Virus record (IMG/VR): IMGVR_UViG_3300045988_130225
Location: 32,001 to 96,000 of that record
Direction: 5' to 3' (one strand)
From: a virus
Length of the DNA stretch: 64,000 nucleotides
Positions 2,366-53,590 of this stretch are shown piece after piece. The position numbers and the translations under genes are program-made. How positions within the stretch are numbered: the first letter of the stretch is position 1; every line of letters begins with the position of its first letter. The notes beneath the pieces were generated by a model, which did not search any database, was not told the DNA's origin, and saw only the letters and a list, made by a program, of their open reading frames with translations.

Positions 2366-3703
2366 TTATTTGAAACGGATAAGGATAATTCCAGAACCAC
2401 CAGTACCACCGTCCCTACCACTATAAGCATAGCCACCACCGCCACCACCTGCTCCACCACCAGTATTAGCAGAACCATTGCCGCCCGCACTAGCAAAAAT
2501 GTAATCTGGTTCACTAGAAGAACCTCCACTTCTATAGGTACCATTACCACCATGACCGCCACCTATAGAACCACCAGAGCCACCCCAGTTACCCGGTGTT
2601 AAAGCACCTAATCCTTGTCCACCAGAACCACCACCGCCAGAATAAACAGTACCAGAACTTTCACCAAATGGGCGAGTTGTTGTTCCTTGACCTAATCCTT
2701 GACTATTTGTGACACCAGGACTATTACCACCATTGCCACCATTACTACCGCCATTATTTCCATAAGTATATCCATACGCTGAACCACCTACTCCACCGCC
2801 ACTACCGCCACAACTAGCACGATAATATGGTGAAGTAGTTTCACCGTCACCGCCATATCCACCAGAAGCAGTACATAATGTAGTTCCGCTTCTTGTTACA
2901 GAAGTAGTGCCACCAGTACCCCCATTAGCGCCGCCACCGCCACCAATAGAGCATACTAAAGTTTGTCCAGAAGATACACTAACATTAGAAGCAGTTTTAG
3001 TGTAGCCACCACCGCCACCACCGCCACCATAAGTTGAATTTCTATCTCGACTTTCTCCATGCCCACCACCGCCACCACCACCAACACAAAATATATCAAC
3101 TTGACTATATCCACTTGGTACAGTTACATTTGTACTACTTGTAATCGTCTGTGTATATGTACTACCACTTACAATATTACCTTGTATTGGTGTTCCTATC
3201 AATTCCCCATTACTTGTCACACAATAACTATACACACTTATGTAATACCTAGTTCCAAGATTAGGAAACCCCAAAGTAACACTACTTCTACCACCACTTG
3301 TAGTATTATTTCCAGTACCTTTATAAATCTGAGTACCACCAGTCCCAGGATTTCCACTTGTGCTATATTTAACATATACACCACTATAAGGTCTACCAGT
3401 AGTTTGTATAGGGTTAGACCAAGTAACAGTAATATTTCTACCACTAGAAACAGCTAAGTTTAAATTACTTACATTACCAACTTCCATTGTGCCAGTAACC
3501 TTAATTTTAGCGTCTGTATTATAAAACGTAGCACCTTTGATAACATGACTTTCTATAGCGTTTCCAGTCAGTTCCAATGTGCCAGTTTGTATATCGTCAC
3601 TATCTTTTCCTACGAATGTATATCCTTTTAATACATTATTTGGTTCAGCAGTTGCAATATCAGAACTACCACCACCAGTAGGAAATCTATTCATAATTGA
3701 CAT
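2366..3703 (-). CDS. glycine-rich tail fibre protein
   Basis: 445 aa. N-terminal domain shared with 2105..2350, an FN3-like middle (NITVTWSNP...YVKYS), and a long G-rich C-terminus (GGGGGGG runs) ending GGSGIILIRFK, as in phage glycine-rich fibre domains. Confidence 0.7.
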   Translation of the reverse strand: MSIMNRFPTGGGSSDIATAEPNNVLKGYTFVGKDSDDIQTGTLELTGNAIESHVIKGATFYNTDAKIKVTGTMEVGNVSNLNLAVSSGRNITVTWSNPIQTTGRPYSGVYVKYSTSGNPGTGGTQIYKGTGNNTTSGGRSSVTLGFPNLGTRYYISVYSYCVTSNGELIGTPIQGNIVSGSTYTQTITSSTNVTVPSGYSQVDIFCVGGGGGGGHGESRDRNSTYGGGGGGGGYTKTASNVSVSSGQTLVCSIGGGGGANGGTGGTTSVTRSGTTLCTASGGYGGDGETTSPYYRASCGGSGGGVGGSAYGYTYGNNGGSNGGNGGNSPGVTNSQGLGQGTTTRPFGESSGTVYSGGGGSGGQGLGALTPGNWGGSGGSIGGGHGGNGTYRSGGSSSEPDYIFASAGGNGSANTGGGAGGGGGGYAYSGRDGGTGGSGIILIRFK

Positions 3704-27919: not shown

Positions 27920-28095
27920 ATCAACTCACCGTTACTGAAAACTTATAAAAAGTTATAAACTTTTATGTTTCATTCCTACTTCAACGAGTATGCTTTCATA
28001 ATTATTTCTAATATACTACTCACAAGTTCTTGCACTCTCCATAGGCGTAAATTCCGAACTAACGTATTCGTACATATTTATATCAACCTGAAATG
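27907..28095 (-). ncRNA. putative omega RNA (scaffold plus guide) of TnpB-1
   Basis: ORF-free 3' flank of tnpB up to and just past the inferred right end. Called by analogy with TnpB systems and not folded rigorously. Confidence 0.35.
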
Positions 28096-31114: not shown

Positions 31115-32995
31115 TTAGAACACAAGTTGGTCTAACTCATCTAAATTGGTATCTCTTTGTTCATCTACAGCATACTTATCACCTATTAAGGTTGCAATAT
31201 GGTTTCCGTAACTCAAAGCTACAATTTTATCCTTTGTCGCACTATTTCTGTTAGGTTCTGATAATTTCAAAATACCGTTATTCCATGTTTGAGTTAAACT
31301 AATAGCTTCTGACATCATTAATGCAGTTTGAACATATGGCAACTTAATATTAACTTTTTCCTCAGAACTCATAGTAAGATAATTTACATCTTCTTCAAGT
31401 TCTGTTTCAATCGTTAATTCATCTACCAAAAATTCAATCATTTCATTATCTAGGGCTTTCTTTAAATCAAGCCACATTAAACTATTTCGTTCACTTGTAC
31501 CAACAATAGGTATGATACATGGTATAGCTTCTGCATCAACCGTTTTGCCTTTAAGTTCTTGAATTTTAGCGTCTGGAACTATCTGTAAAGCAGATTCATA
31601 ACAAACTGTAAATCCATGTGGATTCCAATTACTTCGTGATGGGTGTTCAAAAGGTTTAGATAACTCTGTATAATAAAGAGTACCACCGCTTCTTTCGTCC
31701 ATTACGATATAATCTGCTTGGTAATCCCAAAAGAACTCTCTAATCTTTTGTTGAAATCCCTCACTATCACTAGCAGGGTGCGTTCCAATATATTCTACTT
31801 TTCGTCTTGTCTTACCATCTTTCATAATGACAGACATACAACCAATAACACTATTATCGTTATCGTTTGTATTGCTGTTTACAAAAGCATAATCAATGAA
31901 AAGTAAACGTTTTTCAAATTCACCTTTAGGTCTGTTACCTAAATCAGTTGACATAAATATATCCATAGGCGTAGGTGGTTTATAGGCTTTTTTTATCACT
32001 TGATTCTTTCTGAAATCTTCAAGTAAGAAGAAAGCACCCTCTGTTTCACCATACATTTCATTCAAATCTTCTGTTACAAAGTCAATATCTGAATCAAATT
32101 CTTTATCATGCCAGTAATCAGCCCATGTTTTAAGGTTAAATAAAATTGCAAGAAAAATATTAGAAGCAAAGAAATTATATGTATGGTCTTTTCGTATCAT
32201 ACTTTGTTGAACAACAAGTTTAAATTCTTGCCAGAAACTTTCACTTCTAAATCTTGCAGATGTAATACTTATAGTTTTACATTGCTCAACCCAACGTGGC
32301 AATGTTTTTCCATTACTATCTTTATATTCGTCCAACAACGAAAATTTAGATTGTCTTGGGTGAGCCATTTTAGAGAATACAGAATCTATTAAACTTTTCT
32401 TCAAAAGTCTACGTTCTTCATATATAAGCATAGTTGCCCTAGAACCTCTACTGCTGTTCAGACAAGGTAAAACCGTTATCATACTGCCATTTATTTTGCT
32501 CAAATCTACTTCTACACAATCATTATTATACCTAAAAACTATATCGCCATTCTCATAATAATATTGTAAAACTGGTGAAAGTTTCTTGCAAAGTTCATCT
32601 TCTATTTTCTTTTTTACTAGCTTTGTAGCCTGTGGAATAGTAGAAGATGTAATAACAACTTCTGCAAACGGGTATAAACATGAGTGTATGACAGCGAGAA
32701 GTCCTGCAATCATTGACTTAGAAGCACCTCTCGAACAAATCGCATACCAATATTGGCTAATTCCTGCTAAATAAACCATAACATGCTGAAACGGATATAA
32801 TTTAATCTTTAATCTTCTTTCAGCATATATATTCCAATTACGTCTATAAAATGTTGTCCATTCCTTAATATTTTTCTTTCTTTGTTCCCACGGTAATCTT
32901 CTGTCAGTCTTTTTCTTTTCTTCTTGTTTTTTCTTTCTTTTTTCCACAAGACTAATAATATCTATATCTTTGTTTTCCTCTAACATAGACATCAC
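31115..32995 (-). CDS. terL: terminase large subunit
   Basis: 626 aa. Walker A-like CSRGASKS, Walker B-like TMLIYEE, and a C-terminal Asp-rich nuclease half (LFIDYAFVNSN...). The best RBS (AGGTGA) favours ATG 32986. Confidence 0.8.
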   Translation of the reverse strand: MMSMLEENKDIDIISLVEKRKKKQEEKKKTDRRLPWEQRKKNIKEWTTFYRRNWNIYAERRLKIKLYPFQHVMVYLAGISQYWYAICSRGASKSMIAGLLAVIHSCLYPFAEVVITSSTIPQATKLVKKKIEDELCKKLSPVLQYYYENGDIVFRYNNDCVEVDLSKINGSMITVLPCLNSSRGSRATMLIYEERRLLKKSLIDSVFSKMAHPRQSKFSLLDEYKDSNGKTLPRWVEQCKTISITSARFRSESFWQEFKLVVQQSMIRKDHTYNFFASNIFLAILFNLKTWADYWHDKEFDSDIDFVTEDLNEMYGETEGAFFLLEDFRKNQVIKKAYKPPTPMDIFMSTDLGNRPKGEFEKRLLFIDYAFVNSNTNDNDNSVIGCMSVIMKDGKTRRKVEYIGTHPASDSEGFQQKIREFFWDYQADYIVMDERSGGTLYYTELSKPFEHPSRSNWNPHGFTVCYESALQIVPDAKIQELKGKTVDAEAIPCIIPIVGTSERNSLMWLDLKKALDNEMIEFLVDELTIETELEEDVNYLTMSSEEKVNIKLPYVQTALMMSEAISLTQTWNNGILKLSEPNRNSATKDKIVALSYGNHIATLIGDKYAVDEQRDTNLDELDQLVF

Positions 32996-41591: not shown

Positions 41592-41775
41592 CGGAGTATG
41601 AAGTTGATTAATAGTAATAGAAAGTATAAGAGTTTTTGAATTTTTGTACTATCAAATGTATCTAATAAGGTGTTCTCTATATCTGATACATTTACTAGTA
41701 CAAAAAATTAAAAACTATATAATTTTTATTGAGTTTGCTTACATTTTAAAAAATACCAAAAAAGGAGAAATGATT

Positions 41776-42789
41776 ATGGAATTAGAATTTAACAAACCCT
41801 ATAAATACAAAGATTTATGTAATTTTTTTAATTTAGAGCCAAAAACAGGAACAACTAAAATTTACCAAATTAAAAGATTACAAAAAGAATACGAAATTGA
41901 AAAATTAGGAACAAACTATGTTTTTATTAAAAAATATACAAAAGAAGAAATAGAATTAGCTGAACAAACAGAAAAATTAAAAGGTGTTTATCAATCTTAT
42001 GTAGAATCTATTCTTACTGAATTAATCGCAAGACAGAATAACGGTATTCTTAGAATGTCTACTACAGAATTATTAAGAGAAGTAGGTTTTATAAATGAAG
42101 ATTTTAGCTACTGTAAATATAATAGTTACTTTTCTTCTTTAATTCTTAAAACAGATGAAATAGATTTACATGAATATACAGAAATTGTATATAAACAGTT
42201 ATCTCATTTATTAAGAACCATTATCCAAAATTTACATGATAAGCATTATCTTATTAGTAGACAATGTTTTAGATTATTAAAAGTTGTCAATACTAGAATG
42301 AATGGAACTAAAATTCAATCACAATATGAGGTTCCTATTGAAACAAAAGAAGAACAAGATATTTTAAAGATTTATCTTCGTACGGCACGTTCTTTAGGGT
42401 ATAATGACGTTAAAGAATTATATGTTAAATTTAAAGATGTAGAAAAATTTAAAGATTTAGTAGGTAAAGAAATTAATAAAATTTATCCAGAGTATAATGC
42501 TGTATGCAAAGTATATAGTTTAAGTAGCGATAGAATGACAGCTTTAGATAATAGTACAAAGATTAAGAATGAACTTACTCAAAAGATTAGAAAAAAGATT
42601 GAGGGTTCAAAAGCAACTATCGGCATGGAAGATTTAGCATTATATGTTGAAGCTACAATAGACCCAAAAAGAATCTATCAGATTAAAGAGAAATTTTCTA
42701 AATATGGTCATTTACTTAGAGAAAACCCAGAATTATTAAGACAGACTTTATTTAAAGAAAATGAAGATATTATGTTTTTCCATAATTAA
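41776..42789 (+). CDS. early protein, paralog family A
   Basis: ORF track 41644..42789. Start at MELEFNK (AAGGAG RBS 8 nt upstream). Paralogous to 43602..44537 (Y.YK.LC...; INEDFSYCKYN vs INTDFKYCRYN). Confidence 0.65.
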   Translation: MELEFNKPYKYKDLCNFFNLEPKTGTTKIYQIKRLQKEYEIEKLGTNYVFIKKYTKEEIELAEQTEKLKGVYQSYVESILTELIARQNNGILRMSTTELLREVGFINEDFSYCKYNSYFSSLILKTDEIDLHEYTEIVYKQLSHLLRTIIQNLHDKHYLISRQCFRLLKVVNTRMNGTKIQSQYEVPIETKEEQDILKIYLRTARSLGYNDVKELYVKFKDVEKFKDLVGKEINKIYPEYNAVCKVYSLSSDRMTALDNSTKIKNELTQKIRKKIEGSKATIGMEDLALYVEATIDPKRIYQIKEKFSKYGHLLRENPELLRQTLFKENEDIMFFHN

Positions 42790-42934: not shown

Positions 42935-43597
42935 ATGGAGAAACCGATAAAGAAAATTATTATTATCAACGGCTCTGGTGGAGTTGGTAAGGACGCTTTT
43001 GCTAAAAGAGTTATTGAAGAAACTCTTAAATTGTCGAAACGTATTGTTCCAGTTGAGAATGAAGATTATTGTGTAGACCCAGAAGTTTTTTACAAAAGAA
43101 ATAATATTTCTACTATTGATTGCGTAAAAAATATTGCCAAAATGTTTAACTGGAATGGTGAGAAATCTGAAAAAGACAGAAAAATGTTAAGTGACCTAAA
43201 AGATTTAATGACGGTCTATAATGATTATCCTTTTAAATGTATTACAATACAAATTAGTAATTGGCTACATTGTGTTGGGTGTATGTATGACCATTCATTT
43301 CTTTTTGTACATTGTAGAGAGCCTAAAGAAATTGAAAGAATAAAAAATCAGTTTCCTAATGACACTTTTACTTTATTAGTACAGAATCCTAAAGTTGCAA
43401 AAGTAACTGGTAATCATGCTGATAGAGAAGTTGAAAATTACAATTATGATTTTACTGTAGTTAACGATTCTGACCTTAGAGCATTAAGAAAAGTTGCTAT
43501 TGACTTTTATAAGAAAATCTTTAACCAAGGTTTTACAAAGTATAAGTTTGTTGCTTCTGATTATGATTTCAACCCAGAGGAGAATGGGATATTTTAA
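42935..43597 (+). CDS. P-loop NTPase, dNMP-kinase-like
   Basis: KIIIINGSGGVGKDAF Walker A at the N-terminus, 220 aa, with the overall layout of phage nucleotide kinases. Confidence 0.45.
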   Translation: MEKPIKKIIIINGSGGVGKDAFAKRVIEETLKLSKRIVPVENEDYCVDPEVFYKRNNISTIDCVKNIAKMFNWNGEKSEKDRKMLSDLKDLMTVYNDYPFKCITIQISNWLHCVGCMYDHSFLFVHCREPKEIERIKNQFPNDTFTLLVQNPKVAKVTGNHADREVENYNYDFTVVNDSDLRALRKVAIDFYKKIFNQGFTKYKFVASDYDFNPEENGIF

Positions 43598-43601
43598 AAA
43601 A

Positions 43602-44537
43602 ATGATAGAAATTGGTAGGACTTATCGTTATAAAGAACTTTGTGAAGCTATAGGAAAAAATAATGTTATAGGGTCTTATAAAACAACCTTACTTAAAAGT
43701 ATTTATAAGAATTATGAGGTAGTTCATAAAAACGGCTTTTATAAAATCATAAGAGAATATTCACAACAAGAAAAAGATGCAAAAGAAATTAAAGGAATGT
43801 ATCAAAAACTGCTTGAAGCTATATTAAGTAATTTTTTATCTCAACAAGACAATTATTCAGTCTGTACCTCAATGATGGAATTACTTTTAGCTTGTGGGAT
43901 TATTAATACAGATTTTAAATACTGTAGGTATAATATTGATTCTTCATCTAAAATACTTAAAAGTGACCCTTATGACTTAGAAGAATATATCACAAAATCT
44001 TATAATCTTCTTAGCCGAATGTTTAAAGATATTCTTGACCAACTTGAAAATAAAGCTTTAATCAAATGTCGAAAAGGTTACAAGCTGTTCAAAGTTAATA
44101 ACATGGGGTTACAAAGTGGTAGCAAGGTGATAACTCTTGGCTCAAAAGAGGAAACGATAATTATTAAGGCTGAGGAAGAAGGACTTAAGGAAATGGGTCT
44201 TACTAAGCTATTTGAAGTATATAGAAATGAAATTAGTATTGAAACATTTAAAAAAATCACAAACAGAAAGATAAAAGAACAGTTTCCAGATTATGACGGT
44301 TATTACAAAGTATATCATATCACTTTAAATCGTACAGGACTTTGGGAGAACAAGAATAATATCTATAAAGAACTTAATAAAAAAATTCAAACCAAGTTAT
44401 TAAAAAATAAAGGTTTATCTGAAATAACGCAATTAAAGAAAATGGTAGACGCTACAATTAATTTGTCCAGACCATTTAAAATACAAGAAAATTTAAAGCT
44501 TATGAAAAAGTTGGAAGGAGAAAATAACAATGAGTGA
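43602..44537 (+). CDS. early protein, paralog family A
   Basis: ORF track 43494..44537. Start at MIEIGRTYRYKELC. Collinear similarity to 41776..42789. Confidence 0.6.
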   Translation: MIEIGRTYRYKELCEAIGKNNVIGSYKTTLLKSIYKNYEVVHKNGFYKIIREYSQQEKDAKEIKGMYQKLLEAILSNFLSQQDNYSVCTSMMELLLACGIINTDFKYCRYNIDSSSKILKSDPYDLEEYITKSYNLLSRMFKDILDQLENKALIKCRKGYKLFKVNNMGLQSGSKVITLGSKEETIIIKAEEEGLKEMGLTKLFEVYRNEISIETFKKITNRKIKEQFPDYDGYYKVYHITLNRTGLWENKNNIYKELNKKIQTKLLKNKGLSEITQLKKMVDATINLSRPFKIQENLKLMKKLEGENNNE

Positions 44538-47719: not shown

Positions 47720-47790
47720 AGGGCATTAGCCAAGCGGAAAGGCAAAACACTTTGACTGTTTCATGCGTAGGTCCGAATCCTACATGCCCT
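47720..47790 (+). tRNA. tRNA-Gln (anticodon UUG)
   Basis: Hand-folded cloverleaf: acceptor AGGGCAT/ATGCCCT, D stem GCC/GGC, anticodon stem AAACA/TGTTT with loop CTTTGAC, T stem GTAGG/CCTAC with loop TCCGAAT. CCA is not encoded. Confidence 0.85.
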
Positions 47791-47821
47791 GTTTATAAAA
47801 ATAAATGTTTGGTGATTAAAA

Positions 47822-48570
47822 ATGAATACTAATATTAAATATTATGAACGTAAAGTTCCAATAGTTGATACTTATTCTGTTAAAGAATTAGAAGAAATTG
47901 TGAAAAATTCATATTCTTTTAAAGAAGTAATTTTAAAATTGGGGTATAAAACGCAGAATGGAAGTAATATAAAAACAGTAAGAAACAGATTAGAAAACTT
48001 AAACATTGATTATAGTCATTTTGCTTCTACTATGCAAATAAAAAGAACCTATGAAAATGTATTTTGTAAAAATAGTACAACTACACAGCATGTTTTAAGA
48101 CGGTGGTATAAGAAAATAAGTAATGATAATATTTGTACTATTTGCAGACAGGATAAAATCTGGAATAATAAAGAATTGACTATGATTTTAGACCACATTG
48201 ATGGCAACAATCATAACAATGTAACTTCAAATCTACGGTGGATTTGTCCTAATTGCAACAGTCAGTTGCCTACATTTGCAGGCAGAAATTTAAGATTAGA
48301 AATGTAAAGTTAAAACATACAAGAGAAAAGAAAATTTGTCCTATTTGCAACAAAAATATCCTTTCTAACAGTGATAATAAAATGTGTATTGATTGCTACA
48401 AAAATTATCAATCCAGAAATATTCCTGCTAAAGAAGAGTTAGAAAAATTAATTTATAATACGCCTTTTGTAAAAATTGGTAAAAAATACGGGGTATCAGA
48501 TAACGCTGTAAGAAATTGGTGTAAGAAATACGGCTTACCTTATAAATATAATGATTTACACAAAAGATAA
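47822..48570 (+). pseudogene. HNH homing endonuclease split by a frameshift
   Basis: ORF 47822..48307 carries ILDHIDGNNHNNVTSNLRWICPNCNSQ (HNH). ORF 48253..48570, in another frame, carries the usual C-terminal CPICNK...CIDC zinc finger and the KYGVSDNAVRNWCKKYGLP HTH. The frames switch near 48283-48292. Confidence 0.7.
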
Positions 48571-48675
48571 TTAATTTATTATGTTTAAGTCTTGTTGGAA
48601 AGAATTAGTAGATATTATAGGTAATCTATTAAACAATGCAAGTTCAACTCTTGCACCTAAATTTTTATCATAAAC

Positions 48676-48748
48676 GGAACAATATTTCAACTGGTTAGAA
48701 AGTTCGGCTCATAACCGAAAAGTTATAGGTTCGAGTCCTATTTGTTCC
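48676..48748 (+). tRNA. tRNA-Met/Ile2 type (anticodon CAU), elongator-like
   Basis: Acceptor GGAACAA/TTGTTCC, D stem TTTC/GAAA, anticodon stem TTCGG/CCGAA with loop CTCATAA, T stem ATAGG/CCTAT with loop TTCGAGT. Confidence 0.85.
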
Positions 48749-48854
48749 ATTAGAAGAATAATCAATATTGCACACCATCACCTTATAATTATAATGACGT
48801 TCCCCCTAAAATAACGTTTATTACTGCAATATTAATTGTTCTTCACAATACAAA

Positions 48855-48912
48855 ACAGTAATACAGTATAACAACTCCCACCACCAATGTTTATGCTGTA
48901 TTACTGTTTTTT
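48855..48912 (+). terminator. terminator-like long hairpin
   Basis: 12-bp stem ACAGTAATACAG/CTGTATTACTGT with a 29-nt loop, followed by TTTTTT. Confidence 0.45.
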
Positions 48913-48921
48913 ATAGAACAG

Positions 48922-50169
48922 TAAGCCAAAAACCCCCATTAGCTTTAGCTGATGGGAAGAATAGTGGAGAACAATTAACTGAGAGTGAGGTGATTATAGA
49001 TGTTGGTAGCATACAAATACAGATTGTATCCGAATAAAGAACAACAAGAATATTTTGCTAAATGTTTTGGGTGTGTACGATTTATCTATAATCGTATGCT
49101 TTCAGATAAGATTGACTATTATAAAGAAACAAAGAAAAAGCTGAATAATACACCTGCTCAGTACAAGAAAAAGTTTGAGTGGCTAAAAGAAGTAGATTCA
49201 CTTGCATTAGCAAATGCTCAAATGAATTTGCAGACAGCCTATAACAATTTTTTCAAACGTCCAGAAGTGGGTTTTCCAAAATTCAAAAGCAAGAAGAATA
49301 ATCACTTCTCTTATACTACAAATAATCAGGGAGGAAACATTTATGTGACAGACCGATACATAAAACTCCCTAAGATTGGACTTGTTAGAGTTCGGAAACA
49401 TAGAGATTTTGAAGGATTAATTAAGTCTGTTACTATTTCTAAAAGTCCGTCTGGTAAATACTTTGTTTCAGTATTAGTAGACCAAAAAGATAAAGAAAAA
49501 TTAATTCCAAACAATAACCAAATTGGAATTGATTTAGGTATTAAAGAATTTTGTATTACTTCTGATGAAGAGATGATTCAAAATCCAAAGTTTCTTAGAA
49601 AGTCTGAAAAGAAATTAAGAAAATTACAAAAGGATTTATCTCGTTGTCAAAAAGAAAGTAAAAATAGAGAAAAATGCAGAATTAAAGTCGCAAGACAACA
49701 TGAAAAGATTGCAAATCAACGTAAAGATTTTCTACATAAGTTATCTAGGCGATTTATTGATGAAAACCAAATCATTGCATTAGAAACTTTGAAAATTAAA
49801 AATATGATGAGTAATCATAAATTAGCAAAATCAATAGCAGATGTATCATGGTCTGAATTTGTAAGACAATTAGAGTATAAGGCTCAGTGGTATGGTAGAG
49901 AAATCGTAAGGATTGATACTTGGTATCCATCAAGTCAGATATGCTCTAATTGTGGTCACAAAGACAGAAGAAAGCCATTATCAGTAAGAGAATGGATCTG
50001 TCCTAATTGTGGTACACATCATGAAAGGGATATAAATGCAGCTATAAATATTCTTAAAGAAGGTTTGAGAATTAAAACGGCAGGAACTGTCGAGATAGTC
50101 TAAGTAAACTTGTGCGGTTACGCATATTGATTAGAAAATCCAATGAGTTTTAACTCATGGGTAGTTCAG
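48922..50169 (+). mobile_element. tnpA-less IS200/IS605-type TnpB element 3
   Basis: Matching 22-nt subterminal hairpins at 48935-48956 (CCCATTAGCTTTAGCTGATGGG) and 50140-50161 (CCAATGAGTTTTAACTCATGGG). The left flank TAGAACAG resembles the element end TAGTTCAG. Confidence 0.6.
49000..50103 (+). CDS. tnpB: TnpB RNA-guided nuclease
   Basis: 367 aa. [21 protein letters not shown] and [11 protein letters not shown], plus CSNCGH...CPNCGT. Confidence 0.85.
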
Positions 50170-50190
50170 AGGTAAGTTAATGAGTAGATG
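50104..50190 (+). ncRNA. putative omega RNA 3' part and guide of TnpB-3
   Basis: Right-end hairpin followed by flank AGGTAAGTTAATGAGTAGATG. The scaffold probably extends back into the tnpB 3' end. Confidence 0.35.
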
Positions 50191-50215
50191 TAGAGGTAAG
50201 TTAATGAGTAGATGT
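50168..50215 (+). repeat. perfect 24-bp tandem duplication (2 copies)
   Basis: AGAGGTAAGTTAATGAGTAGATGT occurs at 50168-50191 and again at 50192-50215, directly abutting the TnpB-3 right end. Each copy contains an RBS plus ATG. Confidence 0.95.
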
Positions 50216-50557
50216 AATTGTCAGCATTGTGATGCTTATATCAACATTCCAATAAACTGGTTCACAATGTATTTCTATGAGGACTTAACAAGATGTTGGA
50301 TTTTTTGGCATATGAAAATGAATCATGATTTTCAGAGTACAGAAGATAATTGGTTTACTTTTGTATTAAGATTTATTGGGTTAATGTTAAAATTTGATTT
50401 AGCTTGTGTGTTGATTTCAGTGAAGATTGTGCTGACACCATTTTTAATGTTGGATAAATTTTTATTCTTTGACGCTAGAAGAGATATGGATTTTGAATAT
50501 TTGGATAGTGATGAAGTTGAGGAAGATGAAGATAAAAGTGAGGATAAGGAGAATTAA
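50180..50557 (+). CDS. hypothetical membrane protein with acidic tail
   Basis: 125 aa. The N-terminus MSRCRGKLMSRC reflects the 24-bp duplication, so the alternative start 50204 is equally good. Confidence 0.5.
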   Translation: MSRCRGKLMSRCNCQHCDAYINIPINWFTMYFYEDLTRCWIFWHMKMNHDFQSTEDNWFTFVLRFIGLMLKFDLACVLISVKIVLTPFLMLDKFLFFDARRDMDFEYLDSDEVEEDEDKSEDKEN

Positions 50558-50563
50558 ATAAAA

Positions 50564-52157
50564 ATGAAAAACAGTAAAAGGATTGTATCGAAGATACAGA
50601 AGAATGTTCAAAAAGAAATAGTGTTAGTATCAAAAAATAGAGAGAGGAAATGGCAACTCGTTAATTTTTGTGAATTTGACAAATATGCAACAAAATCATA
50701 CTGTGCCATTCATGGTGTTGATGAATCATTGAATCTTGGTGATATTACAAAGGTTGATGAAACAAAGCTTAAACCATTTAATATGATTTGTGGAGGTAGC
50801 CCGTGTCAAGATTTTTCTATAGCAGGTAAGCAAAAGGGTTCTGTTTGGACTTGCAAAGAATGTGGACATGAATATAATCCATTGACGGTACATTGGCTAA
50901 AAAGAGATAAGTGTCCATGCTGTGGAAGTAACAATATTGAAAAAAACTCGTTCATCTCTTTTAGTAGAGTATTTAAGAGTAATAAGAGCGAACAAACCCA
51001 ATTTTGGTTTGTATGAAAATGTTAAAAATATTGTTGGAAAACAATTTAAAGAAACTACTTTTAAATTATTTACTGATGAATTGAAAGAATATGATTATAA
51101 TGTGTATTGGAAAGTTTTAAATGCAAAAAATTACGGTATTCCGCAGAATAGAGAACGTGTTTATTTAATTTTTATCAAGAAAGACTTGGATAATGGCAAG
51201 TTTAAGTTTCCAGAGCCATTTGATAATGGTGTTCGATTGAAAGATATGCTTGAAGATAAAGTAGATGAAAAGTATTATATTTCAAAAGATAAAATTGAAA
51301 AATTTTTAAAGAATTTTAATTATGATTTTAGTAAAAATCAGTTAGGCAGTATTGAAAATAATAATTCTCAAACCAATAGAGTATATAATATAGATAAAGA
51401 ATCACCAACTTTAAACACTTGTTCTGGTGGTAATCATCAACCAAAAGTTTTATTAGGAGTTGATAAAACTTTTAATAACCCAAAAATTATAGATGAAGCT
51501 AATTGTTTATGTGCAAGATATGATTGTGGTTTTACTAAAAGAGTTTCAGAAGGCACAGCAGTTTTAGAAAGTATTCCAATTTTAGTTTCAAAGAAAGGCG
51601 AAAAGTTTGATAAAAAGATTAATGAAGCAAATACGTTATTAGCCCGTGATTATAAAGGGTTTGGAAATCAAACTATGAACGCAGTTATTCAAATCCCGCA
51701 AGCAACTAAAAAAGGCTATATTGAATGTGAGCAAAATGGTGTTGCAGATTTATCATATCCAACTTCTACTACAAGAAGAGGGCGTGTACAAGAAAACGGA
51801 AATATTTCACCAACTCTTACAGCATCAGAAACAAATATTTGTAAGATAGAATCATTGATTAGAATTAGAAAATTAACACCAAAAGAATGTTTTAGACTTA
51901 TGGGTTTTTCTGATAATGATTTTGAAAAAGCTGAGAAAACGGTAAGTAATTCACAATTATATAAACAAGCAGGTAACTCTATTGTTGTAGATGTGCTTTA
52001 TTATATATTAGTTGAATTATATAAAGCAATGCCATATCTGTTCGATGATTTGAAACTAAGTAGTTTTTTCTCTGGAATTGGAGCGTTTGAGATAGCATTG
52101 GATAGATTATATAAAGGAATAAATTCTGGAAATTTTATAAGTCTACAAGTAGATTAA
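50564..52157 (+). CDS. DNA (cytosine-5) methyltransferase, multi-TRD, interrupted by a +1 frameshift at an A7 tract
   Basis: GGSPCQDFS (motif IV, 50793-50819), ENV (51015-51023), QNRERV, RKLTPKECFRLMGF (IX) and QAGNSIVV (X). Frames switch at A7 50940-50946. Four T.L-type target-recognition loops. FFSGIGAFE (motif I) lies at 52065-52091, after motif X. Confidence 0.75.
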
Positions 52158-52399
52158 GTTCTGCTTGTGGTAAAAATAAATTTATATATTGTTTAAAATA
52201 TCAACGTACTGAATATGGTAAAAAGATTAGAAAAGATTATGAAAATGGCAAAATAAAAGAAAAACGTTGTAATATGAGAAATTATACAATAAGAGAAGAT
52301 GAATGTTGTAATACTTTAACAACAGTACAGAAAGATAATTATATTATAATAAAAAGAGGTGAAGCAAATGAAAGTAAAGAAAGTAAAAGGAATATCTGA
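52115..52399 (+). pseudogene. remnant of a second C5-methyltransferase (TRD fragment, no start codon)
   Basis: An open frame without ATG reads ...YQRTEYGKKIRKDYENGKIKEKRCNMRNYTIREDECCNTLTTVQKDNYIII, typical of phage Dcm target-recognition regions. No motif IX/X follows. Confidence 0.45.
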
Positions 52400-52694
52400 A
52401 ATGGGATTTTTTGAAATGAGTTTTGATTTTAAATTTGGAGATAAAGTAAAACCTGTAAACCTCTGTCAATATACTCTTGCTATCGACAGTGAAGTATATT
52501 TGCAAAGTATAAGCAACATGAAAATAATCAATGCTAAAAGTCTTATCGCACTTAGCCAGTTTCCTTATTTCCCCACTGAAACTGTAAGACTTATTATTAA
52601 AGATAACAAGTCAAGTGAAGCAAACAAGGCTTTAGAATATTTTCTAAGTCAGAACACATTTATTGTCAGAAAGCGAGTTGTTCAACATGATTGA
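52359..52694 (+). CDS. HPr/Crh-like fold protein lacking the catalytic His
   Basis: IINAKSLIALSQF....TVRLIIKDNKSSEANKALEYFL aligns with HPr [13 protein letters not shown]...ITISASGADENDALNALEETM. The GIHARPA site is GISEMGF. Confidence 0.3.
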   Translation: MKQMKVKKVKGISEMGFFEMSFDFKFGDKVKPVNLCQYTLAIDSEVYLQSISNMKIINAKSLIALSQFPYFPTETVRLIIKDNKSSEANKALEYFLSQNTFIVRKRVVQHD

Positions 52695-53118
52695 TAAATT
52701 AAGAGAAGCAAAAAAAGGTAAACTTACCAAAGAAGAAAACGCAATTAAACAGGTTTCAGCATGTATAAAGGCATGGGAAAATAATGAACCTGCGACACTT
52801 AGCACTGAAACAATGAAAACAATCCTTAAAACTTTAAAAGAGATAAAAGATTTTCGTGACGTTGGCAACGTAAAAACTATAAAAGAATTAAAAAAACTCA
52901 GCCTTAAACGTCAACCTAAAAATCTTAATAAAAAATATTGCGACTACAAAGTTGACGATGAAGAAATCCATTCTTTCTATGGCATCTGCCCCAACTGCGA
53001 GCAACCATTAAATTTCTACTGGCATCAGAAATATTGCGGCAACTGTGGACAAGCCCTTATCTGGCGAAACTTAAAGTCAGTAATAAGCAAGAAAGACCTT
53101 GACAAAATCATAAAGTGA
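52687..53118 (+). CDS. zinc-ribbon protein
   Basis: ORF track 52663..53118. ATG 52687 overlaps the upstream stop. Motif CPNCEQP...CGNCGQ. Confidence 0.55.
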   Translation: MIDKLREAKKGKLTKEENAIKQVSACIKAWENNEPATLSTETMKTILKTLKEIKDFRDVGNVKTIKELKKLSLKRQPKNLNKKYCDYKVDDEEIHSFYGICPNCEQPLNFYWHQKYCGNCGQALIWRNLKSVISKKDLDKIIK

Positions 53119-53134
53119 CACGTTCACATTTTTA

Positions 53135-53176
53135 AACCCCTTAGTAACACAAAGTACAAGGGGTTCTTTTTTATTT
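53135..53176 (+). terminator. rho-independent terminator
   Basis: AACCCCTT/AAGGGGTT 8-bp stem followed by CTTTTTTATTTT. Confidence 0.7.
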
Positions 53177-53590
53177 TCAACCAAGTTATCACATTCAGAA
53201 CAAAATTCCCCTATATCTACTTTCTACGGACTGTTACCACCCTAAATCAGAATAAATCCCCCTAACTCAGAGCACGAGATTTCGCCCTATATTGCAAAAC
53301 ACTACATGAAGCCCAAGGGAGTAATTATTTGCAATGTCCTATAAATTGGACACCTAAAACACTAATGAAAATCATTTAAGACTTGAAGCATTGCAATTCG
53401 CCCACTCGAAAACGCCTACGCAAAAACCATTACTTTTCGACTATAGGGGGTCAAGGCACTTTTCGCCAATAGTTCTTTTTAGAACCATTTTTCCGTTATT
53501 CATAAATTTTAATAACGAACAGTGAAATGACAAAACACCTGTCTTTACAACTGACAAGACAACTGACAAGACATTTCTTAATTTTCCACT
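53177..53590 (-). ncRNA. candidate leftward non-coding transcript
   Basis: Lies downstream of a minus-strand copy of the conserved early promoter -10 block. It has no ORF >20 aa by hand scan and runs into the hairpin at 53135-53176. Confidence 0.3.
53547..53573. repeat. tandem 12-nt repeat ACAACTGACAAG x2 (+ACA)
   Basis: Read directly from the sequence. Confidence 0.9.

Follow-up and report, generated by a model that had tools for sequence, protein, structure and literature searches.

How can a DNA (cytosine-5) methyltransferase (C5 methyltransferase) be built when its motif I, the FxGxG loop for S-adenosylmethionine (AdoMet), stands behind motif X at the very end of the chain, and what becomes of such a gene when its reading frame is broken by a run of seven adenines (A7)? 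Both questions are raised by a gene at positions 50564-52157 of a 64,000-nt stretch of viral DNA (the window, by which we mean the whole stretch analysed), which corresponds to positions 32,001 to 96,000 of IMG/VR record IMGVR_UViG_3300045988_130225. C5 methyltransferases are the textbook case of an invariant motif order, and a previous examination of this DNA from its letters alone, referred to here as the sequence-only reading, had proposed either a circular permutation or the stump of a second gene fused in frame. Taking all the evidence together, we consider it probable that the locus is an orphan phage C5 methyltransferase related to the multispecific SPR-type enzymes, that it belongs to a circularly permuted family, that genes of this kind give two isoforms by -1 frameshifting and that the copy in the window is split by the A7 run.

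Motif order and circular permutation

In the window, two overlapping open reading frames (ORFs) on the plus strand, 50564-51016 (150 residues) and 50922-52157, meet at the A7 run at 50940-50946. The gene consists of a 5' segment in the original frame up to the run (50564-50946), which encodes a variable leader, motifs II-IV and a zinc ribbon, and a 3' segment in the +1 frame (50947-52157), which encodes motifs V-VIII, an array of target-recognition domain (TRD) modules, motifs IX, X and I and the stop codon; all its features lie on the plus strand. Deleting one A from the run gives a repaired protein of 530 residues, with 204.6 bits against Pfam PF00145, the C5 DNA methyltransferase profile (curated cut-off 22), and with the motif order II, IV, zinc ribbon, V-VIII, a variable (TRD) region of about 230 residues, IX, X and I. 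The first conserved element is the motif II region, WQLVNFCEFDKYA (50651-50689), which aligns to strand beta-2 and E40 of M.HhaI; its residues W30, L32, F35, C36, E37, F38, D39 and A42 are invariant in the aligned relatives, and this strand forms the N-terminus of the chain in all relatives read. Motifs IV (PCQ; GGSPCQDFS with the catalytic Cys, 50792-50818), VI (ENV, 51012-51029), VIII (QxRxR; QNRERV, 51144-51161), IX (51867-51908) and X (51954-52031), which the sequence-only reading had reported in their usual order, were all located in the repaired protein, are invariant among 38 relatives and align to M.HhaI. Motif I does not stand N-terminal to motif II, as it does in the PF00145 class, and follows motif X. 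Its full block, LKLSSFFSGIGAFEIALDRL (52050-52121; residues 496-519), comprises strand beta-1, the FSGIG AdoMet loop and helix A, as delimited from the relatives, an AlphaFold2 model and M.HhaI, and the stretch previously pointed out at 52065-52091 is its core, FFSGIGAFE. The earlier remark that the N-terminus lacks an AdoMet loop holds more widely: FxGxG is absent from the protein N-terminus and also from the upstream ORF 50180-50557, which has no Pfam match.

The same layout recurs well beyond the window. At least 120 sequences match the repaired protein, and the 120 relatives among the matches listed all show 59-99% identity over 74-100% of the query length. It was found in 12 of 12 relatives read, including a 555-residue NCBI-annotated protein of Mediterraneibacter gnavus, all of which start at about W(E/Q)LVNFCEFDKYA and end with ...LKLSSFFSGIGAFEIALDRLYKGINSGNFxxPQxE. 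In the C-terminal block, the 38 aligned members agree without exception at L496, L498, S500, F502, S503, G504, G506, A507, F508, E509, L512, L515, Y516, I519 and N520. An exhaustive representative search showed that distant clusters at 50-62% identity (P0137, P0144, P0148 and P0159) also keep the layout, and the permuted family covers several 50%-identity clusters; canonical enzymes that are equally similar to the query (P0168, P0173, P0180, P0189 and P0198) have an N-terminal motif I.

When the last 30 residues were put first, the resulting un-permuted construct gave one HMMER domain over M.HhaI residues 14-92 (motifs I-IV). The AlphaFold2 model contains a C-terminal strand (residues 496-500) and helix (505-521) with a predicted local distance difference test (pLDDT) score of 79-90, alongside about 80-90 for the catalytic core, and its top Foldseek match was M.HhaI, in a sequential alignment that is by its nature blind to the docking of a permuted strand. 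On these alignments, the permutation break is between helix A and strand beta-2, i.e. between motifs I and II, and the C-terminal strand, loop and helix would complete the AdoMet site.

If the C-terminal motif I were instead the non-functional stump of a fused tandem methyltransferase, the AdoMet site would be missing or borrowed. A permutation that arises by duplication would go through such a stage, and a TRD-like segment does lie directly downstream, as the remnant of a second copy might. We nevertheless regard this explanation as highly improbable: the block is invariant down to about 60% identity, with the layout kept in clusters at 50-59% identity, its pLDDT is as high as that given above, no other motif I is present in the gene or its neighbours, and the downstream segment is under purifying selection and not decaying. 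At the three relative loci examined, the gene is single, with no adjacent second C5 methyltransferase gene, and the arrangement of two ordinary tandem genes in relatives, which the sequence-only reading had named as evidence against its proposal, was not found there; M. gnavus-type loci carry Dam-like and N4/N6 methyltransferase genes a few kilobases upstream. Of the two options first proposed, circular permutation is retained and the second-gene stump is dropped, given the family-wide layout, the invariant block, the lack of an adjacent gene and the contiguous alignment to M.HhaI.

Natural permutation of the C5 fold has been surveyed before. Slaska-Kiss et al. (2018, PMC5944983) describe a search of 20,677 REBASE C5 methyltransferases for motif X before motif I, which returned 27 enzymes, all permuted in the variable region in the manner of M.BssHII, and conclude that one permutation topology is used in nature; in the same paper, another engineered and fully active permutant type is said to be without a natural counterpart. 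A 2025 topology classification lists 5-methylcytosine enzymes as canonical (C) and zeta-like (F) only. The zeta-class enzymes (topology F; M.BssHII, M.Alw26I, M2.Eco31I, M.Esp3I and M2.BsaI) are likewise circular permutants of the same fold and are thought to have originated by duplication and truncation (PMC5944983; bioRxiv 10.1101/2023.12.13.571470). They differ in where the chain is broken: in the zeta class the break lies in the variable region and motifs IX-X precede I-VIII, whereas in the present family the break lies between I and II and only motif I has moved, so that the order II-VIII, TRD, IX, X, I is not that of the zeta class.

A closer parallel is artificial. The engineered permutants cp35M.MpeI and cp33M.SssI are active in vivo (scored ++), with a new N-terminus placed N-terminal to the motif II-III site (PMC5944983); from the wording of that paper we infer that the cut maps to the gap between motifs I and II. 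If that mapping holds, their order of elements equals that of this family, from which they differ in being artificial and poorly soluble and in having no extra C-terminal module; given the mapping, the family is, by its motif order, the natural counterpart of this engineered type. No description of a natural permutant with motif I last was found in the literature searched, which left out most subscription journals. The family is a large natural counter-example to the survey conclusion of one permutation type, with its cut close to a site that engineering has proven viable, and because a natural family is cut near such a site, permutation by duplication becomes testable on real sequences.

The fold also tolerates breakage, as the split C5 methyltransferases M.AquI and M.EcoHK31I illustrate, the parts of which can work in trans (PMC5944983). 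A distant family relative, L061, is likewise split into two overlapping ORFs. The A7 break in the window differs from these splits in that it separates the zinc ribbon from motif V, and the part behind it is without a start codon. The two ORFs of L061 lie in different frames, at 1222-2109 (II-VIII and TRD) and 2090-2977 (TRDs, IX, X, I and more TRDs), and are followed by a third, TRD-only ORF at 2992-3213; splits of this type in permuted relatives may represent further recoding sites or a two-subunit enzyme.

A probable -1 frameshift signal and a further recognition module

What follows motif I, a -1 ORF with its signal, had escaped the sequence-only reading. Seven codons before the 0-frame stop, the gene carries the slippery heptamer A_AAT_TTT in phase (52130-52136; GGA AAT TTT = G-N-F), and 6 nt past it an 11-bp stem-loop (52143-52170; arms 52143-52153 and 52160-52170), the loop of which holds the 0-frame stop codon TAA (52155-52157). 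The hairpin has a predicted free energy of -14.9 kcal/mol (z = -5.1). RNAalifold folded 16 distinct sequences into the same helix, with 176 of 176 cells paired and compensatory changes at two pairs, against 37-51% pairing in slid controls. Among loci with an extension of at least 55 codons, 23 of 24 have the exact in-phase heptamer, where about 0.23 would be expected from codon usage. Furthermore, three loci (L119, L123 and L131) keep the heptamer followed by hairpins of unrelated sequence that start 6-9 nt after it; in L119, the GNF/heptamer segment is duplicated. A role of the hairpin as a terminator was considered and rejected, as no U-run follows it.

The -1 frame that overlaps this heptamer encodes an extension of 87 codons (52136-52399), with ...FYKSTSRLSSACGKNKFIYCLKYQRTEYGKKIRKDYENGKIKEKRCNMRNYTIREDECCNTLTTVQKDNYIIIKRGE... 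just past the stop, that consists of a linker and a TRD module, YCLKYQRTEYGKK...NTLTTVQKDNY (52187-52342), and lacks a start codon. At 19 distinct loci, only 0-5 codons of open -1 frame precede the heptamer, with no ATG, GTG or TTG among them at any locus, and the first start codon comes 11-94 codons in, often within a module. Across the family, the extensions run to 60-197 codons and carry from one to about four different TRD-like modules; in a shuffled-sequence control, only 0.1% of starts remained open for at least 65 codons.

A Pfam search of the downstream fragment gave no match. By tblastn against phages, the module of the extension is 66% identical to a module in the TRD region of the canonical methyltransferase of Bacteroides phage BT24, and many canonical enzymes also have the same module within their TRD arrays. 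Its conservation downstream of the permuted gene extends to relatives with a methyltransferase that is only 68% identical. Between loci L015 and L016, the substitutions in the extension fall 1, 0 and 13 times at the first, second and third codon positions (12 synonymous codon changes and 1 non-synonymous), and other module types found in extensions show the same third-position bias. The elements of programmed -1 frameshifting are all present here: a phased and conserved heptamer, a structure 5-9 nt downstream and a start-less overlapping ORF under purifying selection. Together, the heptamer, hairpin and -1 ORF make up the standard signature of this process and suggest that it yields a long isoform.

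In L121, a close relative on a metagenome-assembled genome (MAG) contig (CANQIA010000009.1), an extension of this kind is fused in frame after ...DINVGN-Y, with the same modules as the -1 extensions of L048, L049 and L051. Distant relatives (L061, L063-68 and L070-73) also have TRD modules in frame after motif I.

These fusions bear on the proposal that the -1 ORF is a separately translated TRD-only protein acting in trans, or else a silent recombination cassette. Gene callers do predict stand-alone proteins of 60-200 residues in some assemblies, in a few of these the initial ATG precedes the KFY site by a few codons, and M.AquI and M.EcoHK31I provide a precedent for parts that act in trans. 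We think this proposal unlikely, however: upstream of the heptamer the -1 frame is without ATG, GTG or TTG in 19 of 19 distinct loci, the architecture of heptamer, spacer and hairpin is kept even with a different hairpin sequence, in-frame fusions exist, and a silent cassette would show no third-position substitution bias. Programmed frameshifting into the extension is the reading that we prefer.

Cassettes of this build are known from dnaX, the IS3-family transposases and the G/GT genes of phage tail chaperones. With them the locus shares an in-phase X_XXY_YYZ heptamer, a short spacer, a stem-loop and a start-less overlapping -1 ORF; it differs from them in its recoded product, a DNA methyltransferase to which a recognition module would be added. 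The literature searched contained no case of frameshifting that adds a TRD to a DNA methyltransferase.

The A6/A7 run

The frame break that the sequence-only reading had seen at A7 is real, and a 99.6%-identical relative has A6. Over 50191-52160, the two closest relative loci (L001 and L009) are 99.6-99.7% identical to the window and have A6 with an intact 530-residue ORF, and the 90% cluster P0001 has 66 members, most of those listed being 530 residues long. The exact truncated product of 150 residues was found on several contigs from NCBI, JGI, ENA and Logan, and A7 is also present in L007 (run SRR23294209) and L008 (NCBI MAG GCA_964306935.1), which diverge by 1.2-1.8% from the window and from each other and have an upstream haplotype unlike that of the window. 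At least three diverged assemblies thus carry A7. Scanning by pattern for the A run brought up no more than 2 loci among viral contigs and 1 among metagenome contigs.

Could the seventh A be a homopolymer sequencing or assembly error, with the gene intact in the real phage? The change is a single base in a homopolymer, both flanking frames are otherwise undamaged and the closest relatives have A6, all of which would fit an error. Set against this, the exact 150-residue product recurs on contigs of different sources and A7 is found on the diverged L007 and L008, and we consider an error improbable. We conclude that A7 is a real, segregating allele and probably an inactivating one.

Nor does the run look like an evolved on/off switch for phase variation of the methyltransferase, which we rate as somewhat less probable still. 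Such a switch would account for the circulation of both alleles, for the presence of A7 on at least two flanking haplotypes and for the lack of a second lesion in the A7 copies. The tract is short, however, and is A6 in just 3 of 34 distinct relatives and mostly A2-A4 elsewhere, which simply reflects E-K-T codons. The 5' half of the methyltransferase gene is without single-nucleotide polymorphisms among the close strains, the flanks being mosaic, so that recurrence is indistinguishable from recombination and one origin of A7 is not separable from several. Of the causes that had been put forward, a one-off sequencing error is disfavoured because A7 recurs in other samples, and designed phase variation because the family does not conserve the tract; at A7, slippage may recur or transcription may correct the frame at a low level. 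An A_AAA_AAC heptamer at the A7 run was also considered as a site of rescue by -1 slippage and was rejected, since passing from the upstream to the downstream frame takes a shift of +1 and not of -1. With A7 as a segregating allele, the copy in the window is probably off, or weakly expressed via slippage.

Recognition modules, genomic setting and significance

The internal TRD array (51375-51851) comprises four cassette-like modules on the plus strand, at 51375-51449, 51456-51569, 51585-51692 and 51693-51851, defined by the presence or absence of blocks among relatives; these correspond to the four TRD-like loops noted before, and the region proved modular. In the relatives inspected, three of the four modules of the window behave as insertion/deletion cassettes, with two modules missing in frame from P0004 and additional ones in P0008, P0106 and P0107; the last module (IPQATK...SPTLTASE...) does not vary among them. 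Tandem, separately removable TRD modules, as in the SPR type, are thus present on the evidence of cassette presence and absence. M.SPRI was among the better-scoring named phage matches (31.8% identity, residues 30-485, E = 4e-56). Like the enzyme of the window, M.SPRI and the phi3T, rho11s and SPbeta group from Bacillus phages are orphan enzymes with tandem TRD modules between motifs VIII and IX, and M.SPRI shares the FSGIGAFE, EIDKYA and SYCAIH signatures. Some relatives carry a module near-identical to the first M.SPRI module (NPSGNGMNG...SPTxTTNKGEG), and the third and fourth modules of the window resemble, by eye, the other two M.SPRI TRD segments. M.SPRI differs in its canonical order I-X and lacks the zinc ribbon, the C-terminal TRD and the frameshift signal. 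From these similarities, multispecificity of the methyltransferase is plausible.

The zinc-ribbon insert after motif IV that the sequence-only reading described was borne out, CKECGH...CPCCGS (50846-50929) having the form CxxC...CxxC where the catalytic loop ends, at a place that falls between M.HhaI G92 and E94 in the alignment, with C97, C100, C117 and C120 invariant in the 38 aligned relatives. It is not peculiar to the permuted enzymes: the ribbon is present in canonical relatives too and absent from M.SPRI, and so marks a wider subfamily. Motif IV is also the site of an intein (Hint and LAGLIDADG; GGSPC/F...HN/CQDFS) in several family members and a canonical methyltransferase (P0022, P0089, P0102, P0105, P0112 and P0114-P0116; locus L025).

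The window belongs to the genome of a tailed phage, with genes for tape measure, portal and tail on the minus strand over its first 40 kb and, from 41 kb on, a low-GC block on the plus strand that carries early and DNA-metabolism genes. Related contigs comprise IMG/VR phage contigs of 80-160 kb and prophages in gut Clostridia, with hosts that include Mediterraneibacter gnavus, Lachnospiraceae, Lacrimispora, Coprococcus, Faecalimonas, Blautia and Coprobacillaceae. A megablast search of 48500-53200 against phage records gave a single 118-bp match and no close cultured relative.

Directly upstream of the methyltransferase gene, ORF 50180-50557 encodes a protein of 125 residues with an acidic C-terminus. 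It is a separate small ORF, also found in L001, L002, L007 and L008, and in the window its 5' end is replaced at the boundary of an inserted element (48805-50190) that lies upstream of it and carries an IS605-type TnpB (OrfB) gene (ORF 49000-50103; Pfam OrfB_IS605, Cas12f1-like_TNB and HTH_OrfB_IS605). The short tandem repeat GGTAAGTTAATGAGTAGATGT stands at the right edge of the element, which is absent from the 97%-identical L007, where about 138 bp are found instead. We considered that this element might have removed motif I and rejected the idea, the insertion being strain-specific and relatives without it sharing the N-terminus.

Further upstream, tRNA genes at 47720-47791 and 48676-48749 (plus strand) flank the overlapping ORFs 47822-48307 and 48253-48570, which show weak matches to HNH endonucleases, zinc ribbons and helix-turn-helix domains and may represent a frameshifted homing endonuclease between phage tRNAs. 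ORFs 41644-42789 and 43494-44537 (about 350-380 residues) look paralogous, are similar over most of their length and weakly match one PHROG of unknown function. Within the structural gene block, a RAGATH-18 RNA match was found at 27973-28045 (minus strand), with 70.6 bits against a gathering score of 44.9.

Several points weigh against the reading proposed here of a permuted, frameshifted and multispecific enzyme. The TRD region of the AlphaFold2 model has a pLDDT below 50, which leaves no usable model of that region, and the grounds for the docking of beta-1 into the sheet, as we infer it, are model confidence and homology. To our knowledge, a recognition module attached after helix A is without structural precedent. 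The extension is missing or broken in L002, L021, L029, L041-43 and L053-56, some proteins in the databases have their initial ATG in the -1 frame, and the -1 ORF may be initiated independently in some lineages. Also, the window's own copy, frameshifted at A7, may yield no active enzyme.

In the mechanism that we propose, the chain would begin at beta-2 (motif II) and continue through motifs IV-VIII, with the zinc ribbon at the end of the catalytic loop, the TRD cassettes and motifs IX-X, and its last segment (beta-1, the FxGxG AdoMet loop and helix A) would fold back into the centre of the Rossmann sheet. The in-phase A_AAU_UUU, the 6-nt spacer and the 11-bp hairpin would then divert some ribosomes into the -1 frame, and the shift would add 87 residues with a further recognition module, so that a short and a long isoform are made from one gene. 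The added module is predicted to be a working TRD, which would probably give the long isoform a wider target repertoire; the likely role would be the protection of phage DNA from several host restriction systems. With some reserve, we lean towards the more general view that the C-terminus serves as a plug-in site for TRD modules, reached by -1 frameshifting or fused directly, and that recoding sets the ratio of isoforms with different methylation repertoires in a widespread family of gut phages.

If this is true, the family represents a new natural topology of C5 methyltransferases and, as far as the literature searched extends, the first case found of frameshifting that tunes the specificity of DNA methylation. 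It would also pose a structural puzzle, namely how a module behind helix A would read DNA. For annotation, the consequence is that gene callers systematically mis-annotate the family and miss the extension. The combination of a frameshift cassette with recognition modules suggests a new way for phages to diversify or dose anti-restriction methylation from one gene, and since the family is common in human-gut Lachnospiraceae prophages, it probably shapes many gut methylomes.

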